Counted from the first letter of the stretch, positions 1-8,700 are shown. The stretch is 40,000 nucleotides of DNA from Chengkuizengella sp. SCS-71B (GCF_040100845.1 NZ_JAZHSH010000001.1:3947772-3987771), one strand, 5' to 3'. Numbers and translations are program-made. Notes: generated by a model from the sequence alone, not told the origin.

Positions 1-132
1 CAAATGATTAAAGACGGAAAGATCATACCTATCAAGAAAACTAAAAGGGATTCTTTATTTTTGAAAGTTGAAATTGAGGAAAAGAAAGTTGAAATGAGTG
101 AATTAAGGAAAAAATACCGTCCTTATGAATAA
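1..132 (+). CDS. 3' end of an ORF entering from the left edge, function unknown
   Basis: The frame is open from base 1 and ends at TAA 130-132 (…IKDGKIIPIKKTKRDSLFLKVEIEEKKVEMSELRKKYRPYE*). Only 43 aa are visible and show no recognisable motif. Confidence 0.3.
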   Translation, partial: QMIKDGKIIPIKKTKRDSLFLKVEIEEKKVEMSELRKKYRPYE

Positions 133-162
133 GAGATGAAAAAATCAAAGGGTGAAAATGTT

Positions 163-561
163 ATGAAATTAACGGATAAGTTAGATGAGCTGATGAAACA
201 GAAAGGGATTAGTCGAATGGGGCTGTCAAAAGAATCTGGAATCCCATACTCCACATTAGTTAACTTCTACGAAAAAGGCACAGACAACGTTAAACTTTCA
301 ACGTTAAAAAAACTTAGTGATTACTTTAAAGTGAGTTTAGATTTTCTTGTTTATGAAAATGTCGGAAAAGAAGATAAACTAAATGAAACACTAGAATTTT
401 ACAAAAAAAGCGTAGAAAGAAAAAATAGTTTGATAAGTAGAATAAATGAAAAAGATTCAGACACATTACAAATCAATGAAGAAATTGAATTGAGGATTTT
501 GGAGGCTGAGAGAAGATTAATAAATGAGTTTATAGAAGATTTGATTCTCTTAAAAGACTAA
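163..561 (+). CDS. XRE-family helix-turn-helix transcriptional regulator with a C-terminal coiled-coil tail
   Basis: It has an HTH_3-type motif (ISRMGLSKESGIPYSTLVNFYEKGTDNVKLSTLKKLSDYFKVSLDFLV). An AAAGGGTGA Shine-Dalgarno sits 8 nt before ATG 163, while the track start at 136 has none. The last ~60 aa are heptad-like and charged. Confidence 0.8.
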   Translation: MKLTDKLDELMKQKGISRMGLSKESGIPYSTLVNFYEKGTDNVKLSTLKKLSDYFKVSLDFLVYENVGKEDKLNETLEFYKKSVERKNSLISRINEKDSDTLQINEEIELRILEAERRLINEFIEDLILLKD

Positions 562-580
562 CCACCCTCAATAGGCGGTT
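562..580. terminator. Weak bidirectional hairpin between convergent genes
   Basis: CCACC-ctcaata-GGCGG with one mismatch, followed by TTTTATCTTTT. It lies exactly between the stop at 561 (+) and the stop at 581 (-). Confidence 0.3.
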
Positions 581-817
581 TTATCTTTTAAAAGGAGATT
601 CATAATCCCTAGTATATATAATCTTTATATTTTGAGTATTACCATCAGGACATTCTATATATCCACCTCTAACAAGTCCGTTTAATACTGAACGGACTGT
701 TTTCTCATCTTTACCTGTTTTGATTTCTAGTTCAGGAATGGTTGGCATTCTGCGTTTTGAATGAGAAAAGTTATACAAGATTCGTAATACCTTTCGTTCA
801 AGATCGGTAAGCATCAC
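581..817 (-). CDS. Small winged-helix protein resembling the LexA N-terminal DNA-binding domain, with no S24 peptidase domain
   Basis: 78 aa. The pattern LTDLERKVLRILYNF…MPTIPELEIKTGKDEKTVRSVLNGLVRGGYIE…IKIIY parallels the LexA N-terminal domain (LSKRQLDILRFI…PPSVREIGEAVGL…TVHGHLARLETKGLIRRD…IEI). The start overlaps the upstream stop (GTGATG, so GTG 817 or ATG 814). Confidence 0.6.
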   Translation of the reverse strand: MMLTDLERKVLRILYNFSHSKRRMPTIPELEIKTGKDEKTVRSVLNGLVRGGYIECPDGNTQNIKIIYTRDYESPFKR

Positions 818-1155
818 GAAACCCCCACTATATCATCAAACTTAATCCACTCATACTCACTCTCAAACTCTAGTTTAATTTGTTTTAATTGGGTATCAAA
901 TTTAGTTACTGTTCCAGTTTTAAATTCATTCTTACCAAATGAAGTAAACAATTCAATTGTTATTTCAGCCTCTTCCATCATGGATTGGGATAACTGCTCT
1001 GATATGATGTTTCTCTCTTCCTCTGCAAGTTTTGGTTTAGTTTTTCTGGTTAATTCGTGTTGAAATTCATTTATGCGTTCAACATGCTCAGGAAGCATCA
1101 TTCTGCTTGATTCCCATAGCATATTAGAGCCTGGTGTTAATTTATTTTCTTTCAT
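814..1155 (-). CDS. YolD-like protein
   Basis: It carries the hallmark NMLWESSRMMLPEHVERINEF motif of the YolD family, followed by an acidic linker and a C-terminal beta region. GAGGTGA lies 5-6 nt before ATG 1155, and the track's GTG at 1164 is less likely. Confidence 0.8.
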   Translation of the reverse strand: MKENKLTPGSNMLWESSRMMLPEHVERINEFQHELTRKTKPKLAEEERNIISEQLSQSMMEEAEITIELFTSFGKNEFKTGTVTKFDTQLKQIKLEFESEYEWIKFDDIVGVS

Positions 1156-1172
1156 TTTTCTCACCTCTTATA

Positions 1173-1192
1173 GAACATTTGTTCTAATTATA
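1173..1192 (-). promoter_or_regulatory. LexA (Cheo/SOS) box overlapping a sigma-A-type -10 element for the yolD-like operon
   Basis: GAACATTTGTTC at 1173-1184 matches GAAC-N4-GTTC perfectly. On the minus strand, TATAAT (1187-1192) lies 2 nt upstream of the box, with a weak TTGCGT -35 at 18-nt spacing. The box is 18 nt upstream of ATG 1155. Confidence 0.65.
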
Positions 1193-1342
1193 TAAGAGGT
1201 ACAGGAGGATACGCAAGAGCACAATTTAATATTTCCAAAACAAACACCCAATCAAAACAATCATAAAAACATATGATGAATTAAGTGTAAAAAGCACTAG
1301 AACAATTCCAAAAAAAACAGAATACCACTTTCTATATGATGT

Positions 1343-1530
1343 AAACCTCACTATTTATATAGTGGGGTTTTAAACTATGAAAAATGTGCGCTTGTATCAG
1401 AGCATTAACCCAAGCAGTTTAGATTTTCCTTTCATAGTATATATTACATTATATATAGAAAGGAGGGATTCGGATGAGTGCTGCAATTGTATTGGTCCTT
1501 TTCATTCTTTTAGTTATTATTTTAGTTGCT
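1343..1530 (+). repeat. Inverted-repeat arm A (hairpin + ~100-nt leader + RBS + TM-coding start of tiny peptide gene)
   Basis: Manual alignment to the reverse complement of 3282-3496 gave about 5 mismatches over ~138 nt (1343-1480). Homology then resumes over the TM-coding part. Weaker homology extends to about 1318. Confidence 0.85.
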
Positions 1531-1572
1531 TCTTGGAGCACGCTAAATACTCCAACAGGAATAGGGATCTAG
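1474..1572 (+). CDS. Tiny single-TM peptide, 32 aa (YjcZ / tiny_TM_bacill-like), paralogue A
   Basis: MSAAIVLVLFILLVIILVASWSTLNTPTGIGI*. A GAAAGGAGGG Shine-Dalgarno lies 6 nt upstream. It is not in the ORF track because it is under 60 aa. The TM-coding DNA is identical to paralogue B. Confidence 0.6.
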   Translation: MSAAIVLVLFILLVIILVASWSTLNTPTGIGI

Positions 1573-1678
1573 AGTAATCTTATTTGACTTATAAAACGTT
1601 AAATATGAAGCATAAAGTAGTTACTAAAACTTGCTTTTTAGTAAGTCTATAGATTTGAGAAAATAAAGTTTTTTTCAA

Positions 1679-1770
1679 CATAGTATATATTACATCAAAT
1701 ATAGAAAGGAGGGATTAACATGGGAGCTGCAATTGTATTGGTCCTTTTCATTCTTTTAGTTATTATTTTA
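1679..1770 (+). repeat. Tandem partial copy B of the promoter-like/RBS/TM module
   Basis: About 7 mismatches in 92 nt against 1433-1524. The 45 nt gctgcaattgtattggtccttttcattcttttagttattatttta are identical. Homology starts abruptly at CATAGTATATATTACAT. Confidence 0.8.
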
Positions 1771-1860
1771 TTAGGTGCGGGGCGCCCACACAGTTATGGA
1801 AGTTCCGTAGGAAAATTCGGATTCGGTTTATCTCCAGATTTACCACAAGGAGTATTTTAA
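1720..1860 (+). CDS. Tiny single-TM peptide, 46 aa, paralogue B
   Basis: MGAAIVLVLFILLVIILLGAGRPHSYGSSVGKFGFGLSPDLPQGVF*. It has the same GAAAGGAGGG Shine-Dalgarno. It is not in the ORF track. Confidence 0.6.
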   Translation: MGAAIVLVLFILLVIILLGAGRPHSYGSSVGKFGFGLSPDLPQGVF

Positions 1861-1934
1861 TTTTGTATTAATTTCATATAAATTTTATTTGATACCCCCA
1901 CCAGTTCACATTATGAGCCAGTGGGGAGATAAAA

Positions 1935-2123
1935 CTATATTAACTTATTTTTATCACTCTTATAGACCGTCACACCAAACAATAGAAATGTTATTACATC
2001 AACTGCCATCTGGAATGTATCTTGCTCGATCCCATAACCGTAAAATTCTATCCCCTGATATATAAGAGCAGCTATCATAAATAAAATATGTGGTTGTTTA
2101 ATTCTTTCTAAAAATGTATTCAT
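1935..2123 (-). CDS. Putative holin (XhlB / phi-LC3-like two-TM protein)
   Basis: 62 aa with two hydrophobic segments (HILFMIAALIYQGI and VDVITFLLFGVTVY). The N-terminus MNTF… and IAALI.Q resemble PBSX XhlB. It lies immediately 3' of the endolysin, 1 nt away. Confidence 0.55.
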   Translation of the reverse strand: MNTFLERIKQPHILFMIAALIYQGIEFYGYGIEQDTFQMAVDVITFLLFGVTVYKSDKNKLI

Positions 2124-2124
2124 A

Positions 2125-2838
2125 TTAATTTTCCCCTTTCTTAATTAAACTAGCTCGTTTTTCAATGTTATCCCAACCTACTTGAGCATCCAAAAACTCT
2201 CCTGTTTCACGCAATTCAATGTATGTTTTACCGTCTACTAAAAACCCTTGTACTGTTTGTTTTTCATCACCCTTTACTAGATCAATATTTACTGTTTTCA
2301 ATTCATTTTTCATTCGCTTGTCCACTTCTTTCATAAATTCATCCCATTCATTAGGATTATTCACAAACCATTTATGACAATCTTTCCAACCCACAACCTC
2401 TTTATGTAGCCATAAATCAGTTAAAGGGTTAAGGTCAAACTCCTTACAAAGTTCTACACATCGATTGACTAAGGAATTATAGGTTTCCTTAGTCATTTTT
2501 CCCTCCCAATCAACATGTGTACACTCTATTCCATAAGTACAATCATTTGGATAGTTTGATAGTCTCTCTAGTGCTTCTTTTGTATAAGTTGATGATCCCA
2601 CATGATAAGCTATTTCATCTTTTGGTATGCAAACAATCACATCACCGTTTAAGTCAATGATTTCATGAGCAGAACCATAACCATTTTTCTCGTTTTTTCT
2701 ATTTTCAAAAAATTTGCGGTTAGCTTCGGCTGTGCTTTTTTTGTTCGCAACCCAATGAATCACAACCCCTTTGATCTTTTTGAGTTTTGTACCAGGTCTC
2801 GAAAAAGGGTTAGGGGTTAGATAGTTATTAACAATCAT
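2125..2838 (-). CDS. N-acetylmuramoyl-L-alanine amidase endolysin (Amidase_2/PGRP fold) with a C-terminal wall-binding domain
   Basis: It has the motifs GVVIHWVANKKSTAEANRKFFENR and YGSAHEIIDLNGDVIVCIPKDEIAYHVGS. The C-terminal ~60 aa (VQGFLVDGKTYIELRETGEFL…) look like the Amidase02_C type of Bacillus phage lysins. Confidence 0.9.
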   Translation of the reverse strand: MIVNNYLTPNPFSRPGTKLKKIKGVVIHWVANKKSTAEANRKFFENRKNEKNGYGSAHEIIDLNGDVIVCIPKDEIAYHVGSSTYTKEALERLSNYPNDCTYGIECTHVDWEGKMTKETYNSLVNRCVELCKEFDLNPLTDLWLHKEVVGWKDCHKWFVNNPNEWDEFMKEVDKRMKNELKTVNIDLVKGDEKQTVQGFLVDGKTYIELRETGEFLDAQVGWDNIEKRASLIKKGEN

Positions 2839-3048
2839 TTACCCTCCATCCTTTCTATCATCAATTTTGTTTTCAATTCTATTAAGTTTTTTATCCAAAG
2901 AACCGAACCTTTTGCTTAATTCATCTAGGGTGTTATGGAGTCTATTTTCTCGGTTGTTGTTGTTTTTCATCACTTTTATAAGTAACCATACAAAAAGGAC
3001 CGCAAAAGGTCCCTGAGTTAAAAAATATTGAATGATATTTAATTCCAA
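2839..3048 (-). CDS. BhlA/UviB-family holin-like protein
   Basis: QYFLTQGPFAVLFVWLLIKVMK closely parallels SPbeta BhlA (QYLSTQGPFAVLFCWLLFYVMK). It has an N-terminal TM segment and a C-terminal coiled coil. The start is TTG with a GGAGG Shine-Dalgarno. Confidence 0.85.
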   Translation of the reverse strand: MELNIIQYFLTQGPFAVLFVWLLIKVMKNNNNRENRLHNTLDELSKRFGSLDKKLNRIENKIDDRKDGG

Positions 3049-3073
3049 TCTTATCCACCCTCCTTAACATGAA

Positions 3074-3102
3074 AGAACCCTGCATTAAATAGGCAGGGTT
3101 TT
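3074..3102 (-). terminator. Intrinsic terminator after tiny-TM gene C, upstream of the lysis cassette
   Basis: CCCTGC (3078-3083) and GCAGGG (3093-3098) form the stem, with a 9-nt loop. The flank is TTCTTTC on the minus strand and TTTT on the plus strand. Confidence 0.5.
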
Positions 3103-3143
3103 GATATATAAATTTATCTATTCATAGTTGATAAATACTTAGA

Positions 3144-3365
3144 TTATAATAATGTTTGGGACCCAAGGACTCCCTCACCAGTTAGAGGTCCAGCTCCTAA
3201 TCGTTGAAAAGCAAAACCTAGAGGAGCACCAGCACCAGTTCCTGAACCGACACCATTCCAACTACTCGAACGTCCACTTGCAGCAATTAAAATAATAACT
3301 AAAAGAATGAATAGTACTAATACAATTGCAGCTCCACTACCAGAACGTCTTCCATAATCACTCAT
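3144..3365 (-). CDS. Tiny-TM family peptide, 73 aa, paralogue C with a Gly-rich tail
   Basis: MSDYGRRSGSGAAIVLVLFILLVIILIAAS… followed by a Gly/Ser/Ala-rich tail. It shares the Shine-Dalgarno and leader of paralogue A. The GSG-plus-hydrophobic-core layout is typical of the YjcZ/tiny_TM_bacill family. Confidence 0.7.
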   Translation of the reverse strand: MSDYGRRSGSGAAIVLVLFILLVIILIAASGRSSSWNGVGSGTGAGAPLGFAFQRLGAGPLTGEGVLGSQTLL

Positions 3366-3496
3366 TCGAATTCCTCCTTTCTATATATAATGTAATATAT
3401 ACTATGAAAGGAAAATCTAAACTGCTTGGGTTGATGTTCTGATACAAGCGCACATTTTTCATAGATTAAAACCCCACTATATAAATAGTGAGGTTT
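3282..3496 (-). repeat. Inverted-repeat arm C
   Basis: It is the reverse complement of arm A (1343-1530). It contains a 27-nt insertion that encodes the extra N-terminal DYGRRSGSG. Confidence 0.85.
3468..3493 (-). terminator. Intrinsic terminator ending the tail-fibre operon (part of repeat arm C)
   Basis: On the minus strand: CCTCACTAT-ttat-ATAGTGGGG followed by TTTT. It lies about 135 nt after the XkdX-like stop. The same hairpin at 1346-1371 (+) has no co-directional gene upstream. Confidence 0.6.
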
Positions 3497-3627
3497 CCGT
3501 AGAAGGATTCTATGAGTGGTAATAGTTCTGCCATATATACTATGTTCATACCCTTCATTTGGTATAGACAAATGACTTGCTTGTTTGAAAATGTGTTCCA
3601 ACCCAAGTCCATACATAAAAATAGAAC

Positions 3628-3762
3628 CTATACTGTGTACGGTTCACCTACGATTTGTTCATATTGTTCTTCTGTGATCTTTGTTCTTTCAACAAATACT
3701 TTTACATTTTCTTTACTATAATACTTTGGATAATATCTTTGAACGATCTTAAACCAATCCAT
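3628..3762 (-). CDS. XkdX-family small phage protein (44 aa)
   Basis: MDWFKIVQRYYPKYYSKENVKVFVERTKITEEQYEQIVGEPYTV* matches the XkdX pattern (MDWF…, VK.FV.….IT.E.Y..I.G). It is coupled by TAATG to the upstream ORF. It is absent from the track. Confidence 0.75.
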   Translation of the reverse strand: MDWFKIVQRYYPKYYSKENVKVFVERTKITEEQYEQIVGEPYTV

Positions 3763-4691
3763 TAAATCACACCTCTCTCTACTAACGATAATGTAAGCCC
3801 TGCTATTTCTGTTTCTAGTTCTTCGATTTGGGTTTCTTTTTCAAGTGAATTAAGAAATTGTGTAGCATTCTCACTCTCTAAAGATTCTATTTGACTCTCT
3901 TTTTGTAATGAATCAAGGATAAGTGTGGCATTTTCAGATTTCAACAATTCAATCTCTTGCTCTGCTGTAAGTGGAGTCTTTGGTGCATTGATAATGTCAT
4001 CATAAGTAAATATAGAAGGTTGGTCCTCAAACTTCACCGTTTTAATCTGTTCAACATCTTCTAAAGCAGGCGCAAGTTCTTCTGTCCATCGTTCATCCTC
4101 TTTTATGACTTCTAGTGGCTCCTGATCTTCATAGGTGATAAGAGGTTCGGTTACTTCCTTGTAATATAATAGATTGCTCTCTGGATCTTCTTTTTGATTT
4201 AGGGTTAATTCCACCGTGGTACAGTTAATCATCTGACCTGTTCCTACTTGCCCCCAATATAAGAGGTTCCCATCTTCATCTACTTTGTGAACATCGCTAT
4301 AAACCTCATTTTCTTCATCCCAAACCTTTTCTATCACTGGTTCATCTGTAACCTCTGTTGTTTCCCCTCTCACGGTACGTTCATACTTCTTTTGTGTGCC
4401 ATCTTCATTGAAAATGGGAATTTGAGTTGGTGTATTTACCATCACTGGATTTTCTGTTATTTCTGTTGTTTCTATCGTTTTAGGGACCTGCTCAGATACT
4501 TCCAAAGGTTCCTGTGGAAGCAAATATAAAAGATTTCCGTCTAGATCCACTTTATGACGTTGTATGATGTCTGGTACCTGCTTGGTTAATCCTTCTAAAT
4601 CCACATCCTCAATCACAATTTCTAATGGTAAAGGTTGACGGTCAATATCAGTAACCTGATTAGTGACACGGTTTATAATGACATTAGCCAT
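3762..4691 (-). CDS. Tail-fibre-associated protein with an XkdW-like coiled-coil C-terminus
   Basis: It sits between the fibre genes and XkdX. It has repeated D.DGNLLY motifs, two 21-aa tandem repeats (SENAT…SL.KE.QIE.LE), and an ending EIAGLTLSLV similar to the XkdW tail. Confidence 0.45.
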   Translation of the reverse strand: MANVIINRVTNQVTDIDRQPLPLEIVIEDVDLEGLTKQVPDIIQRHKVDLDGNLLYLLPQEPLEVSEQVPKTIETTEITENPVMVNTPTQIPIFNEDGTQKKYERTVRGETTEVTDEPVIEKVWDEENEVYSDVHKVDEDGNLLYWGQVGTGQMINCTTVELTLNQKEDPESNLLYYKEVTEPLITYEDQEPLEVIKEDERWTEELAPALEDVEQIKTVKFEDQPSIFTYDDIINAPKTPLTAEQEIELLKSENATLILDSLQKESQIESLESENATQFLNSLEKETQIEELETEIAGLTLSLVERGVI

Positions 4692-4702
4692 TTACATCCC
4701 TC

Positions 4703-5755
4703 CTAACTGTTTTCTAGTCCTTTAATAATGTTCTCTATTCTTCTTGGTAATAGATTTAATGGATAAAGTTGGTTTTTAGATAATATCGTTTCTTCAAACT
4801 GTTGCTTTGCTTCTGGATTTTTCATTTCAATATTTAACTGAGTATAAACATCTAAGATAGCATCTTCTATCTCATTCCAATGAGTAGCCTTGATCGGTGT
4901 TACCCCTTTAATAATCGTTGAGTCAGTCCAGTTAATTGGATCAAGACCATTTCTGTTCCTAAACTCATTAACCATATCACGAATGTAATTAAAAACCTCT
5001 TTCATAAATGGATTTTCATTAGGCAATATCAAGTTTGAATGTTTAAAAAACGTTCTTGCTTGAATGCTATTCTTGGCACTCTCATTTCCTGCTGCGTCTA
5101 TAGCAATAACAGAGAGTGAATACAAAGTACCTCCCTCTAATCCAGTAAAGGTATAATTTGTTTCTATAACTGTTGTGATCAACACATCATCTAGATAAAC
5201 CTTATACCCTACAACACCCACATTATCTGTGGATGGACTCCAAATCAAATTTAGTGTATTTTCTGAAAACCCTACAATAGTTAAGTTTTTTGGTCTGCTT
5301 GGAGACTCAAGGTCCTTTTCTTCTACTTCTGCCTGCCAATCCCCTCTGAAAGTGCTAGAAAAATTATACGTACTCCCTGGATCTTCGAGTATGACCATAC
5401 ATGTGATTCGAACGCAATTTTCAGGTAAATCATTTATGCCACCACTATAATTCCTTTCACTTGTATAGTCGGTATTGCTTGATAAAATTGTAGTTCTTAC
5501 TCCATCTTTGTCATAAGCATAAATGTCAATTTCGTCAACGTGATCATCTGCTGTATAAGGTGGAGTAAAATGATATGATGTGATTTTTTTATAAACAGAT
5601 TGATCTATTCCATAATCTAGTGTAATTCTTGCGTAATTACTATCGTATAGATCAATATTCACATAGGATGAATCTGGTCGTGTCGATGTGTTTAACGTTT
5701 CCTTTTCGCTACTAAAGTTGAGAAAATTCCCTGAGAATATAGCCATATCATCCAC
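4703..5755 (-). CDS. Tail fibre / receptor-binding accessory protein with a fibronectin type III domain
   Basis: PSRPKNLTIVGFSENTLNLIWSPSTDNVGVVGYKVYLDD…YTFTGLEGGTLYSLSVIAIDAAGNES is a canonical FN3 signature. It lies directly after the large fibre gene. Confidence 0.7.
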   Translation of the reverse strand: MDDMAIFSGNFLNFSSEKETLNTSTRPDSSYVNIDLYDSNYARITLDYGIDQSVYKKITSYHFTPPYTADDHVDEIDIYAYDKDGVRTTILSSNTDYTSERNYSGGINDLPENCVRITCMVILEDPGSTYNFSSTFRGDWQAEVEEKDLESPSRPKNLTIVGFSENTLNLIWSPSTDNVGVVGYKVYLDDVLITTVIETNYTFTGLEGGTLYSLSVIAIDAAGNESAKNSIQARTFFKHSNLILPNENPFMKEVFNYIRDMVNEFRNRNGLDPINWTDSTIIKGVTPIKATHWNEIEDAILDVYTQLNIEMKNPEAKQQFEETILSKNQLYPLNLLPRRIENIIKGLENS

Positions 5756-5758
5756 CCC

Positions 5759-8700
5759 CTATTGATACGTCAATATCAACTCTCCATCTTGATCTAAGTA
5801 CCCCTGTATTTCTCCTGTTTGCGTTCTCCATGCAGTTGGTTTAATAGCTGGATTTCTCTCACCTTCAGGTAGTTTGACTAACGGTTTACCTTTAATCGGT
5901 AGCAATAACCCTACCCCATTTTGAGAAGTATCTATTAATCCAGTTTCATTGTAGAAACTAACCACAAGTAGTTTTAACTCATTTTCATGCATGACTAAAT
6001 GACCGATAATTCCAACCATCGGTTTTTGTAAAGTGGATATTCCATATTGAGTGATAAAGTAGTCTCTAAATCCTGATCCATTGACTTGTATTTCTTTACC
6101 TATGTTTACATTCTTACTGTCTGCTGCTAATGGGATATTTGCAAAACCAAACTCACCAAACACGTTTAATGAGTCATTTCCAACCCTGTAAAGTGGATTC
6201 ATCCAGTGGTGTATACCTTGTTTATCTCCTGCAGCACTAGACAAGTCTGAAACTAATATTTCATCTCGTTCAGCTAATACCGTTACATTTTTAGTCGATT
6301 CTAGTTTCTGAGGAACAGGCACATGATCATACCAAAGAGCTACATTGTCCGTTATTCCTGTGCGGTATGATTTAGGGTTATATTCAAGTTTTATTTCTTT
6401 AGTTTCTTTACGTACTTTAACGATGTTGGATTTTACATAGTCTACTTCTTCACTTAGTTCTACATCTAGCTTGATATAGTCGGTGTATACAATACTATTA
6501 TTTTCTGCCGATGCTGGATGTGTGCTGTGGACTAGGATGTATACTTTTTGGTTGTTGGTGATATACGGTAAAAAAGGATCTGGACTAACTGAAATAGTCG
6601 TAGGTACATCATCTGTATTTGACCACCCATTTACCCATATTTTACTTTCTTCATTCCATACAGTCATTCTTGCTCCATAAGCCAATTCATTCCCATCGTG
6701 ACCTTGACCATAACCAGTCCATGAAACGGAAAGTTTACGAAGTTTGTCTTTTAGCTCGGATAAGGATAAACCCAAATGGGATAGGTCGAATTCGAATAAT
6801 CTACATCTGTGTTTACCTAACTGGCTAGTAATATTAGTTGCCAGTATACCGTCTTGTTTTGACAGATCATTGTATCCTATCTGAGTACTCTCATCATTAA
6901 AGCTGTACGGTGTTCTAGTGAGTATATCATCAGTTAGAGTACTACCTAACAAAGTCCTATTCGGTACACTTACATCATCCCCTACGACTTTCCCCAAATA
7001 GTTTAACGTGGTTTTAGATTTTCGTCCTTCGCTCCATGTTGGGTTTTCGTTGATGCCTTTTTCTAGTTTAAAATTTCTAGCTTCAACATAAGTCGCTGTA
7101 TCTGTTTCGTATTTTCGAACAACTATAGTTTCTAAGCTACCATTAGAAAAATCACTCATAAAGAAAGGTGTAAAATCATTCTCATTAAGTTGGACAGATT
7201 TTTTTATAGTATTTCCTTGCTTATTAAATGTATAAATACTTATCGTTCCATTTCCTCTTAACTCGACACTTACCGTAAATGGTTCACCTTCGAGTAAATC
7301 ACATGTGTTTGTACTTGGGTAAACATAGTCATCTACATTCAAATTGCTCAATTTAATTATTCCACCTATTTCTATTGTTGATGAATTTGAATTTATACTC
7401 AGGTCTTTGGTATCAATAGGAAACGCTTGATTCTGTGTTAGTAAATTCTCAGTCATCACTGGAAACTCATTTTTAGGTACTAACACATCGTATCTTGTTT
7501 CAGATACATCGATTTGTATTTCTAACTCTACATAATCTGTATAGATGGTGCTTGGGGTTACTCCGTCACTTGGGTCTGTGTGTGCTAGGAAGTGAACGAA
7601 ACCGTTTGAGTCGATTTTATTAGATAAGGATTCACCACTTATAAACAAGTCCTTGATAGAATTATAATTATGTTCTGTAGGTGGATTTCCAAATCTTTGA
7701 GAGTACCATTGGGAATATTCTTCATACCAAACATCCAAAAATGAAGCATTGCCATTGGGATTTTCTCCATAACCATGCCAAATAAATTTATATTTTCCTA
7801 ATATATCTTTCGCCCTCTGCACCTTATCCTCAATTGTCACACAACCTTCAAAAAAACCCTCGCCTAGTTTATCTTGAATTGCTCGGATGATGTTAAAGGA
7901 GAATAGTTGTTGTGGAATTTCTCCATTAGTAGATGTTGATACACCATTAACTACCTTACCGTCTAGTTTCTCTAAATTTGAATAGGCAGAGTTCGCAATT
8001 TCTGTGATGCTGTCATATGGTGAAATAAGTGTTGAATTTGTCTCGCTAAATCTACTTATATGAGAATTCAAGTCTGTATTTGTTTTTACTTTCCCCTCAA
8101 AATTAGCCTTAATAATAACAATTCCATCATCACTTTTAACCAATTTTTGCTTATTCACTTCACCTTCTAAAACATCCTTAGGTACATGTTCAATTCCATT
8201 TCCACCTGCATAGTTAACACTATATTCAATAGTAAGTGTTTCTTTATTATCATTTGGAGGTGTAATTATTGTATAAGTTGATTCGTTTGTTAAAACACCA
8301 TCCCATTTACCAACAATTCCATCTGCCTTAACAATACTTTTTGTAATTACTGAATTTTCATCTACATCTGCACCAAGAACTGCTTCAAATTGTATTGTTT
8401 TTTCAGTTGAATTTATGGCAGTTATATATCTTGTTGTGCCTGACCAAATATCTCCACTTGGTTTAACGATCAAAAAACTATCTCCTACTGAAAATTCACT
8501 GACATCATCCAGATATAAAACAGTACTGTTAACATCCCCTCTAACTACTTTTGCTAAAGAATTATCTACGGTGTCGATTATTCCAAACAATCCATTTTTG
8601 CATGTGATTTTAATCGTATCCCCTGTTGACCAAACACCTACTGTAGCTTGTGTGACTTCAATATGTTTTAAGTGGTCGTTAGATAGTACTTCTATTTTAT

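Follow-up and report, generated by a model that had tools for sequence, protein, structure and literature searches.

Facing copies of a YjcZ-like tiny membrane-protein gene family probably explain the inverted repeat around a Chengkuizengella prophage lysis cassette

Introduction

The Hin, Gin and Cin systems and the R64 shufflon are site-specific invertible DNA segments. Morons, described for lambdoid phages, are self-contained genes that carry their own promoter and terminator and lie between conserved phage genes. The PBSX- and SPbeta-type lysis cassettes of Bacillus phages are arranged as XkdX-XhlA-XhlB-XlyA and BhlA-BhlB-BlyA, respectively. The YjcZ family (TIGR01732, 'tiny_TM_bacill'; PF09680, YjcZ_2) comprises tiny proteins that contain one helix and the core xxIVLVLFILLVIIL, and endospore-forming Bacillota encode multiple paralogues. 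In Bacillus subtilis, yjcZ has been placed in the sigma-K regulon (PMC517825).

Here, we describe a prophage locus in Chengkuizengella sp. SCS-71B that shares features with each of these systems. The window is the whole analyzed stretch of 40,000 nucleotides (NZ_JAZHSH010000001.1:3947772-3987771), and all positions are counted from its first letter. A first-pass annotation had reported a long inverted repeat that brackets the lysis genes of this prophage and had proposed that recombination between the arms would invert them.

Results

The lysis operon is encoded on the minus strand. An XkdX-family gene (3628-3762; PF09693, 1.6e-11; TIGR01669, above cut-off) is the last gene of the tail module. 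The lysis genes are a BhlA-family holin-like gene (2839-3048; PF10960, 7.8e-13; phrog_2429), an N-acetylmuramoyl-L-alanine amidase (endolysin) gene (2125-2838; PF01510, Amidase_2, 1e-18) and a terminal 62-aa open reading frame (ORF) with two hydrophobic helices (1935-2123). The amidase matches a Chengkuizengella sp. SCS-71B protein at 100% identity. The 62-aa ORF, which had no family match in profile searches, shares 84% amino acid identity with its positional counterpart in the closest related phage contig, L124, and is a putative holin. Together with the tiny-TM gene B described below, these three genes make up the 1.75 kb enclosed by the repeat, in agreement with the first-pass annotation. 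On the far side of the operon, a YolD-like gene (814-1164, minus strand; PF08863) and an HTH gene (581-817, minus strand) form a pair covered by phrog_3352/phrog_3502; this region (581-1164) shows 79-82% nucleotide identity to modules repeated in C. marina. The ORFs within 1-5.7 kb comprise XRE, HTH, YolD, the lysis genes, XkdX and tail-fibre proteins. A metagenome scan with a 309-aa tail protein yielded no confirmed relative. The window ends within a replication module encoding DNA polymerase A and a VapE-like primase, and thus stops short of the integrase end of the prophage.

The inverted repeat was confirmed by a computed repeat search. The outer block (1343-1480/3359-3496) spans 138 nt and is 96% complementary, with five mismatches (at 1374, 1402, 1406, 1467 and 1473), in line with the approximate count made earlier by manual alignment. 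The inner block (1480-1530/3282-3332; 51 nt, 92% complementary) lies inside two coding regions and is separated from the outer block by a 27-nt indel, which adds nine codons to gene C. Perfect inverted identity extends over at most 60 nt, compared with a mean of 13.8 and a maximum of 22 nt in shuffled versions of positions 1-6000 (n = 100). Arm A (1343-1530, plus strand; repeat length about 189 nt) comprises a hairpin, upstream DNA, a promoter, a ribosome-binding site (RBS) and the first 19 codons of tiny-TM gene A, and arm C (3282-3496, minus strand; about 216 nt) contains the same elements with the 27 additional nt (encoding SDYGRRSGS) after the start codon. The terminator-like hairpin, GGAGG RBS and tiny-TM gene start listed in the first-pass annotation are thus present in both arms. 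Its '~100-nt leader' proved to be mostly promoter and upstream DNA, and the weaker homology suggested to extend outward to 1318 and 3545 was reduced to a 13-nt local match that is not significant; the arms stop at the hairpin base. Separately, a 14-nt exact match (1677-1690/3533-3546) links the gene B promoter to a distal promoter copy upstream of arm C.

An Rfam scan of positions 1-6000 at E <= 1 found no RNA family in the arms and only two chance-level matches, MicF and SprX, both outside them. A structured leader RNA or riboswitch was therefore rejected; this reading also fails because the family-wide promoter position places most of the presumed leader upstream of the likely transcript start. 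A hairpin-leader pattern scan of metagenomes returned 0 matches.

Three tiny-TM genes surround the lysis operon. Gene A (1474-1572, plus strand, divergent from the YolD-HTH pair) and gene C (3144-3365, minus strand) encode YjcZ-like peptides of 32 and 73 aa, respectively. Gene B (1720-1860, plus strand) encodes 46 aa and directly repeats the promoter/RBS block and transmembrane codons of A (107 nt at 87%). Genes A and B are located just past the lysis operon and are convergent with it. TIGR01732 was the sole NCBIfam match for A, B and C (15.6, 13.2 and 18.0 bits; curated cut-off 21.35). PF09680 was the sole Pfam match for A and B (14.7 and 15.2 bits) and the second for C (15.6 bits), after a sub-threshold match to PF02466 (Tim17; 17.6 bits); all three PF09680 scores are below the curated cut-off of 21. 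All three products show the YjcZ-type traits: they are tiny, contain one hydrophobic helix and belong to multiple paralogues in endospore formers. Gene A is a mosaic: its upstream part matches C, and its first 45 transmembrane-coding nt are identical to those of B, with 3 of 51 positions differing over a longer block. A and C differ at four sites within the transmembrane codons, of which three are third positions where the change is synonymous; this indicates that the peptides are under selection.

Furthermore, at least 25 homologues were identified, including 18 from Chengkuizengella sp. SCS-71B. Their N-terminus is near-invariant (MSxYGRRSGSGAAIVLVLFILLVIIL) and their C-terminal tails are unrelated; the N-terminal 33 aa of gene C are 97% identical to those of the SCS-71B paralogues P0001 and P0002. 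Several paralogues in SCS-71B and C. sediminis are named 'sporulation protein YjcZ' by NCBI. At least 138 motif-bearing ORFs, with a median length of about 30 aa, were detected in Paenibacillaceae and uncultured Bacilli. Among the matches listed, the neighbours of family genes elsewhere are housekeeping genes (such as PrsA-type rotamase, HIT, HAD and RsmF), and amidases account for 2 of 100.

The promoter regions of the three genes are similar. As judged by consensus match, a perfect sigma-K-type -10 box, CATAGTATA, occurs upstream of gene A (1433-1441, plus strand), gene B (1679-1687, plus strand) and gene C (3398-3406, minus strand). The -35 equivalent is GC rather than AC in A and C, located 17 nt upstream in A, and neither C nor AC is present at this position in B. 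The box lies 41 nt before the ATG, within the usual family range of 39-42 nt; if it is truly a -10 element, the transcribed leader would be only ~30 nt long. The CATAnnnTA motif recurs across the family: among the matches listed, drawn from uncultured Bacilli and many genera of Paenibacillaceae, 78 of 135 genes have it 20-70 nt before the start codon, with a peak at 39-42 nt, versus 2% in the background. In 80 of the 99 distinct promoter segments, a C is found 17 nt upstream of CATA, and 58 have AC with a 16- or 17-nt spacer. From these signals we infer that sigma-K RNA polymerase may transcribe A, B and C in the mother cell during sporulation, without dependence on phage late transcription. 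The distal sigma-K-like promoter copy, GTCTATAC-N17-CATAGTATA (3536-3569, minus strand), has no ORF behind it and is also present on the C. marina contigs L084 and L114; transcription from it would yield a short RNA terminating at that hairpin of arm C.

Four terminator-like hairpins were analyzed. The one at the outer end of arm A (1343-1372, plus strand) is followed by UUUU and folds at -15 kcal/mol (z = -4.7) on the sense strand; the antisense strand, where a C.A mismatch arises, gives -11.2 kcal/mol. Tandem arrays such as the C. axinellae array L068, with the order gene-terminator-promoter-gene, suggest by analogy that this hairpin terminates a preceding family unit. Its counterpart at the outer end of arm C (3467-3496, minus strand) folds at -16.9 kcal/mol (z = -5.5). 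The hairpin 3' of the convergent gene B and lysis operon (1895-1926; -16.6 kcal/mol on the plus and -19.1 kcal/mol on the minus strand) can, according to the predicted folding, terminate in both directions, and homologous hairpins are present in L124 and C. marina. The hairpin after gene C (3075-3100, minus strand; -11.9 kcal/mol, z = -2.5) has a weak U-tail and is kept on both L084 and L114.

Comparison with related phages delimited unit C. L124 is collinear with the window at 73-80% nucleotide identity across the tail fibre genes, XkdX, BhlA, the amidase and the 62-aa ORF, but its homology covers positions 1935-3060 and 3619-3892, and ~8 nt replace 3061-3618. This 558-bp segment between XkdX and BhlA (3061-3618, minus strand) comprises a distal promoter remnant, a hairpin, a proximal promoter, gene C and a terminator. 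In Bacillus phage phi18-2, XkdX is likewise followed directly by BhlA, without unit C. The arms were not found in L124, in six other amidase-related viral contigs (L125-L130) or in phi18-2. A blastn search of 1200-3700 against sequenced phages gave a single 65-nt match, to phi18-2, corresponding to positions 2965-3029 in BhlA, and tblastn of peptide C against the phage collection gave no match. Unit C is therefore a variable presence at a junction where related phages have two neighbouring genes, and, as judged from consensus and folding, it has its own promoter and terminator. Copy C is thus an insertion between XkdX and BhlA relative to these phages, and appears to be a self-contained, moron-type cassette. 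Base composition was also considered as a sign of foreign origin and was rejected, as no contrast was seen.

To trace the near-identity of the arms, hairpin-to-ATG units were compared between species. Identity is 96.3% within SCS-71B (the A/C pair), 86-90% among three C. marina units and 74-80% between the two species. The alignment contains 15 species-diagnostic columns and 0 columns diagnostic of genomic context, although both species keep the A-type context beside YolD as well as the C-type context behind a distal promoter. This combination of higher identity within than between genomes and conserved contexts supports recent duplication or ongoing gene conversion behind the A/C identity, one of the explanations offered earlier. 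The accompanying view that arm A is the derived copy, its hairpin having no co-directional gene to terminate, is not supported: in C. marina, too, the hairpin is part of the orthologous A-type unit.

Discussion

We consider, with a probability of about 0.7, that the inverted repeat is a by-product of gene-family homogenisation, consisting of paralogous 5' modules around the lysis genes, and not a DNA switch. Each arm would correspond to the conserved 5' module from a single gene of the multi-copy YjcZ-like tiny membrane-protein family expanded in Chengkuizengella; this module runs from the preceding unit's terminator through upstream DNA, the sigma-K-type promoter and the RBS to the N-terminal transmembrane codons. 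Three family copies would surround the prophage lysis operon, with C co-directional with the lysis genes and A and B pointing towards the operon. Copies C and A point at one another, so that the 5' modules they have in common appear as an inverted repeat, and the 96% identity of the arms would reflect gene conversion among paralogues rather than a dedicated repeat function.

The inversion proposed earlier would make the repeat the substrate of a programmed switch that turns the lysis cassette on or off relative to the late operon. The repeats are real, include a 60-nt perfect run and bracket a functional unit. However, no recombinase gene is encoded within 1-5.7 kb, and the arms are ordinary 5' modules of the family that are also present far from any cassette. 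The current orientation is ancestral, being a clean insertion relative to L124, and both types of equivalent junction in C. marina are oriented only as in the window. Moreover, no sigma-70-like promoter was found on the minus strand between gene C and BhlA, so an inverted cassette would lose transcription, and inversion would part the lysis genes from the late operon. We therefore regard a programmed switch as extremely improbable. Rare RecA-mediated inversion is physically possible because the longest perfect run is 60 bp; such an event, if it occurs at all, is likely to be a harmful accident of homologous recombination.

The arms had alternatively been proposed as handles for swapping lysis modules, and the evidence on this point is circumstantial: units do adjoin different lysis genes in C. 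marina prophage remnants, but the arms are absent from the closest phage relatives. In its general form, this explanation holds that the units are conserved boundaries at which Chengkuizengella prophages that are co-resident or co-infecting exchange the lysis cassette or flanking modules by homologous recombination. On L084, a unit with 77-87% identity to the C-type unit is bordered by a different tail-fibre-like gene (phrog_13022) and by an XhlA-like hemolysin gene (phrog_937), and the homology reaches the start region GGAGGGTGGATA(A)GATTGGAA shared by two different lysis genes. On the other side, the downstream block (terminator, B-like gene, A-like gene, YolD and HTH) is 77-88% identical in C. 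marina, where its neighbours are an endolysin fragment (phrog_833) and an unrelated holin (phrog_1299), and the same lysis cassette is armless in L124. Nevertheless, these observations come from fragmentary loci in two species and include no reconstructed exchange event; repeated moron insertion at intergenic junctions gives the same mosaic pattern, the inverted arrangement of the arms is irrelevant to exchange between genomes, and the family, among the matches listed, is mostly chromosomal and unlinked to phages. Exchange at the units is thus unlikely to explain the repeat. A still less probable explanation is that the tiny-TM peptides are parts of the lysis system, such as holin modulators, antiholins or membrane-depolarising peptides, which would account for units hugging the cassette. 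The products are single-helix membrane peptides, the units border lysis genes both in SCS-71B and in C. marina remnants, and on two IMG/VR contigs from other hosts (L002 and L003) a family member lies just downstream of endolysin/lysis genes. Yet A and B are antisense to the lysis operon, the units would be insulated from late transcription since each has a predicted sporulation-type promoter and terminators, the closest phages with the same cassette lack tiny-TM genes, gene C has no PHROG match, and the family is, among the matches listed, overwhelmingly found beside housekeeping genes.

In the C. marina remnants, the units also flank lysis cassettes, so a role in lysis or module exchange could replace the view of the units as passive passengers.

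Unit C has two sigma-K-like promoters and only a weak terminator, and it lies directly upstream of, and in the same direction as, the first lysis gene, namely BhlA here and the XhlA-like gene in a C. marina prophage. The terminator may be read through, the cassette may be transcribed specifically during sporulation, and modules may be exchanged at the units. The fuller proposal, that the lysis cassette is coupled through unit C to the late mother-cell programme and that the tiny-TM units serve as conserved linkers for cassette exchange, strikes us as a long shot; if true, the coupling would mean phage-assisted lysis of the mother cell or sporulation-linked phage release.

Under the homogenisation reading that we prefer, a striking inverted repeat around a lysis cassette would be a side effect of paralogous small genes, which calls for caution in scans for long inverted repeats. 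Chengkuizengella prophages carry YjcZ-like tiny membrane-protein genes with sigma-K-type promoters on both sides of their lysis genes, near-identical within a genome. If expressed in the mother cell, these units would represent temperate phages adding small membrane proteins to the host sporulation programme.

Like the Hin/Gin/Cin systems and the R64 shufflon, the locus has inverted repeats that flank a DNA segment and lie partly in coding regions with variable 3' parts. It differs from them in having no adjacent recombinase gene and in that its repeats are ~190-215 nt of paralogous sequence, not short crossover sites; inversion here would not switch expression, because every copy has its own promoter. 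Compared with the PBSX/SPbeta-type cassettes and phi18-2, the window has the same order of XkdX, BhlA-family gene, amidase and holin, and phi18-2 also carries a YolD-like gene beyond the lysis genes. However, that YolD-like protein is only 25% identical to the one in the window, phi18-2 and L124 lack tiny-TM genes, and the 62-aa last gene has no family match, a difference from Bacillus-phage lysis cassettes. The resemblance to phage morons lies in the discrete 558-bp insertion of unit C between genes adjacent in related phages, in its own promoter-like and terminator-like elements, and in the classic post-lysis-gene position of A and B. It is limited by the composition of unit C, which is not distinct (35.8% GC versus 33-36% in its neighbours), and by the membership of gene C in an expanded host family, apparently homogenised with other copies in the genome. 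With the YjcZ family, the genes share the tiny single-helix products and their core, the occurrence as multiple paralogues in endospore-forming Bacillota, and the CATAnnnTA box with C or AC 16-17 nt upstream that is expected of a sigma-K promoter. They depart from it in scoring below the curated cut-offs, in residing in a prophage, and in the long, unrelated C-terminal tails of the Chengkuizengella members (here reaching 44 aa beyond the helix); most proteins of the family are 26-36 aa long in all.

Gene layout and extent of the inverted repeat

Three tiny transmembrane (YjcZ-like) genes, A (1474–1572, + strand, 32 aa), B (1720–1860, + strand, 46 aa) and C (3365–3144, − strand, 73 aa), were located around the prophage lysis operon. 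The interval from A to C contains B, a hairpin (1895–1926, between B and the lysis operon) common to the convergent transcription units, and the minus-strand lysis operon itself, with a BhlA-family gene (2839–3048, −), an Amidase_2 endolysin (2125–2838, −) and a 62-aa two-helix ORF (1935–2123, −). XkdX (3628–3762) is found upstream of C along with tail-fibre genes; on the other side, left of A, the genes encode YolD-like, HTH and XRE proteins. Prophage DNA makes up the remainder of the window, and its terminase, structural and replication genes are all on the minus strand.

The first-pass annotation had described, from manual alignment, an inverted repeat holding the 5′ ends of A and C (arm A and arm C). 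A computed repeat search agreed almost exactly: the arm blocks 1343–1480 and 3359–3496 are 138 nt long and 96% complementary, with five mismatches (1374, 1402, 1406, 1467 and 1473), and a second arm block of 51 nt (1480–1530/3282–3332; 92%) follows beyond a 27-nt indel. The longest perfect inverted run was 60 nt, whereas shuffles of 1–6000 averaged 13.8 and reached 22 at most. Weaker homology, claimed to extend outward to 1318 and 3545, was not significant. Both arms contain a hairpin, a GGAGG ribosome-binding site (RBS) and the opening codons of a tiny transmembrane ORF. Folding gave −15 and −16.9 kcal/mol for the arm hairpins on the small-gene sense strand, versus −11.2 kcal/mol on the antisense strand, where a C·A mismatch occurs. 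A 38-nt block (CATAGTATATATTACATyAwATATAGAAAGGAGGrATT) and about 45 nt encoding AAIVLVLFILLVIIL are common to A, B and C; C has nine additional N-terminal codons that both A and B lack.

The arms belong to a family of 5′ modules

Units built like arms A and C, with hairpin, upstream DNA, promoter and RBS, were found at three C. marina loci (L042, L084 and L114), where they share 74–80% identity with the arms. A C. axinellae locus (L068) carries a tandem array of five units, in which a gene is followed by a terminator hairpin, then by a promoter and the next gene. The arm hairpin, previously assigned specifically to the tail operon as its terminator, most plausibly represents the terminator of a unit ahead of it that has decayed here. 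The A-type context is kept in C. marina L042/L132, where the unit is divergent from YolD–HTH and has upstream of it a specific stretch homologous to window 1215–1342. The C-type context, in which about 45 nt separate a second, distal promoter copy from the hairpin, is kept in L084 and L114; in the window, this copy (GTCTATAC-N17-CATAGTATA, 3536–3569, −) is a second sigma-K-like promoter ahead of arm C. Because both contexts are conserved in C. marina, arm A is not the recent derivative of arm C that it had been supposed to be.

In the distal promoter region (3497–3600, −; L084 ~708–834; L114 ~7695–7830), the ~45 nt preceding the arm hairpin hold no RBS or ORF, and the promoter–hairpin arrangement is kept in three units from two species. 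The region could encode a small RNA of ~70 nt specific to sporulation, or be a family unit that has decayed. Elsewhere, sub-threshold Rfam matches to MicF (28.9 bits; gathering score 79) and SprX (20 bits; gathering score 80) at 575–705 (+) overlap the HTH gene at its 3′ end and are almost certainly due to chance.

Probable gene conversion between paralogous units

From hairpin to ATG, A and C share 96.3% identity, the three C. marina units share 86–90% among themselves, and all cross-species unit pairs share 74–80%. Fifteen alignment columns separate the species, and none separates A-type from C-type units. Because the A-type and C-type contexts are orthologous across species, this pattern is what concerted evolution through gene conversion leaves behind. 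The proposal that duplication or conversion underlies the likeness of the arms is thus supported, as within-genome identity exceeds cross-species identity in orthologous contexts. Gene A is also a mosaic, matching C upstream of the promoter and B exactly in the first 45 transmembrane-coding bases (3 of 51 positions differ between A and B over a longer block), and this make-up appears to point the same way. Within the helix codons, three of the four A/C differences are synonymous, suggesting that the tiny-TM peptides are under selection. Overall, the most likely explanation of the feature is that the prophage lysis operon is flanked by paralogous tiny membrane-protein genes of sigma-K type, which gene conversion has homogenised, keeping the arms alike.

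Insertion of unit C into the phage backbone

An SCS-71B protein matches the window amidase at 100% identity, which makes the window very probably a prophage carried by that genome. The amidase's nearest relative (74%) is encoded on the metagenomic viral contig L124. This contig is collinear with the window at 73–80% nucleotide identity through the tail fibre genes, XkdX, BhlA, the amidase and the 62-aa ORF, at whose stop codon the homology ends; about 8 nt stand in place of window 3061–3618. In Bacillus phage phi18-2, a BhlA gene comes directly after XkdX, the amidase and holin genes come next, and a distantly related YolD-like gene lies past these. No tiny-TM gene was found in phi18-2, and the family is absent from six other viral contigs with related amidases (L125–L130). 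The XkdX–BhlA adjacency and the absence of tiny-TM genes in these related phages indicate that unit C is a moron-type insertion and that A and B are additions past the lysis operon.

The C cassette (558 bp) is bordered by an imperfect direct repeat, GGTTCTATTTTTATGTATGG/GGTTCTTTCATGTTAAGG (3603–3622 and 3064–3081, −), both copies of which resemble GGTTCTTTTTAAATTAGG, the single sequence at the empty L124 site. The repeat looks like a target duplication or the product of recombination between terminator-like tails.

Prophage remnants in C. marina

L084 carries a tail-fibre-like gene (phrog_13022), two small ORFs, a C-type unit and an XhlA-like hemolysin gene (phrog_937), in this order, and its homology with the window extends to a start region common to two different lysis genes. 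The shared sequence, ATGTTAAGGAGGGTGGATAAGATTGGAA, forms the RBS and TTG start of BhlA in the window (3041–3070, −) and, with the frame shifted by one base, the start (MLRRVD...) of the XhlA-like gene in L084 (~330–365); two different lysis genes therefore have the same start region.

L132 carries HTH–YolD, an A-like unit, a B-like unit, a degenerate third unit and a terminator 88% identical to window 1894–1927, past which lie an unrelated holin (phrog_1299), an endolysin fragment (phrog_833) and the cotJABC operon. A second copy of the end of cotJC (3′), repeated directly over 270 nt at 98% identity and joined to a second holin fragment, lies 5.5 kb away; this duplication points to prophage remnants that integrated in tandem at the cotJC 3′ end, in this spore-coat-associated operon. 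The repeat lies at L132 6107–6581 and 10863–12139 (C. marina contig12), each copy being joined to holin sequence. By analogy, the prophage in the window would be expected to have integrated at the cotJC 3′ end as well. As each remnant has its own terminator and YolD–HTH tail, A, B, YolD and HTH may by analogy be prophage genes rather than host flank. Several paralogous Cys-rich proteins (MGVFDESKCDCCVCPMQCVLEQL..., second motif KGECACCEDP) are interspersed with the YolD–HTH and tiny-TM modules in C. marina (L042 4779–5316; L114 838–1307, 1965–2450 and 5599–6108); the sole one checked, L114:5599–6108, had no Pfam match.

Proposed inversion and possible module exchange

Recombination between the arms had been proposed to invert the lysis cassette. 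No recombinase gene lies nearby (1–5.7 kb), the arms are generic family modules, and relatives show one orientation only, with both C. marina junction types oriented as in the window. Relative to the ancestral order, the present layout differs by a clean insertion. No sigma-70-like promoter was detected on the minus strand between C and BhlA, so that inversion would deprive the cassette of late transcription. Inversion is therefore not supported; a rare RecA-mediated event is possible. The alternative proposal was that the arms are handles for swapping lysis modules. Across L124, SCS-71B and C. marina, the units assort independently of the lysis cassettes, and homology stops at the edges of modules. 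Morons inserted repeatedly into intergenic junctions account for this pattern equally, and the case for swap handles is circumstantial. We regard as very unlikely the further readings that the lysis cassette is coupled to late mother-cell transcription through unit C, or that the units are exchange linkers.

A sporulation-type gene family with sigma-K-like promoters

The top family matches of the small genes were TIGR01732 and PF09680 (YjcZ sporulation protein, 'tiny_TM_bacill'), every score being under the cut-off. With C as the protein query, 25 relatives were retrieved (18 in Chengkuizengella sp. SCS-71B; several named YjcZ by NCBI), whose N-terminal halves are nearly invariant and whose C-terminal tails are unrelated. 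Searched as a degenerate DNA pattern, the helix motif occurs in at least 120 genome stretches, whose hosts among the matches listed include Cohnella, Paenibacillus, Marinicrinis, Gorillibacterium, Thermobacillus, Chengkuizengella and many uncultured Bacilli, and also in three viral contigs. The nearest large neighbours among the matches listed are mainly housekeeping genes (PrsA-type rotamase, HIT, HAD, RsmF), amidases accounting for 2 of 100.

Across the paralogues P0001–P0025 and A, B and C, near-constancy extends up to ...AASGRSRY, followed by wholly unrelated tails of 10–45 aa; members from other genera end right after the helix. The Chengkuizengella tails may be read-through into DNA past a copied 5′ module, or a diversified functional region. 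An element, AAAATGTG/CACATTTT, is present in either orientation ~65–80 nt upstream of start codons (window 1381–1396, 3443–3458 and, distally, 3583–3590) and at equivalent positions in L043, L068 and L109, with a near-palindrome, AAAATGCACATTTT, in L043; it may be a regulator binding site.

The sigma-K promoter consensus is AC-N16/17-CATAnnnTA. Among the matches listed, CATAnnnTA was found 20–70 nt 5′ of the start in 78 of 135 genes, mostly at 39–42 nt, versus a 2% background. A cytosine stands 17 nt upstream of CATA in 80 of the 99 distinct promoter segments among these matches, and AC with a 16- or 17-nt spacer in 58 of the 99. The family pattern matches the sigma-K consensus at sequence level. 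Taken together, the relatives, promoter pattern and housekeeping neighbours led us to conclude that the tiny-TM family is a host sporulation-type family of which phages carry occasional copies. B. subtilis yjcZ is assigned to the sigma-K regulon in a study that also gives the promoter logos (PMC517825, Figure 4).
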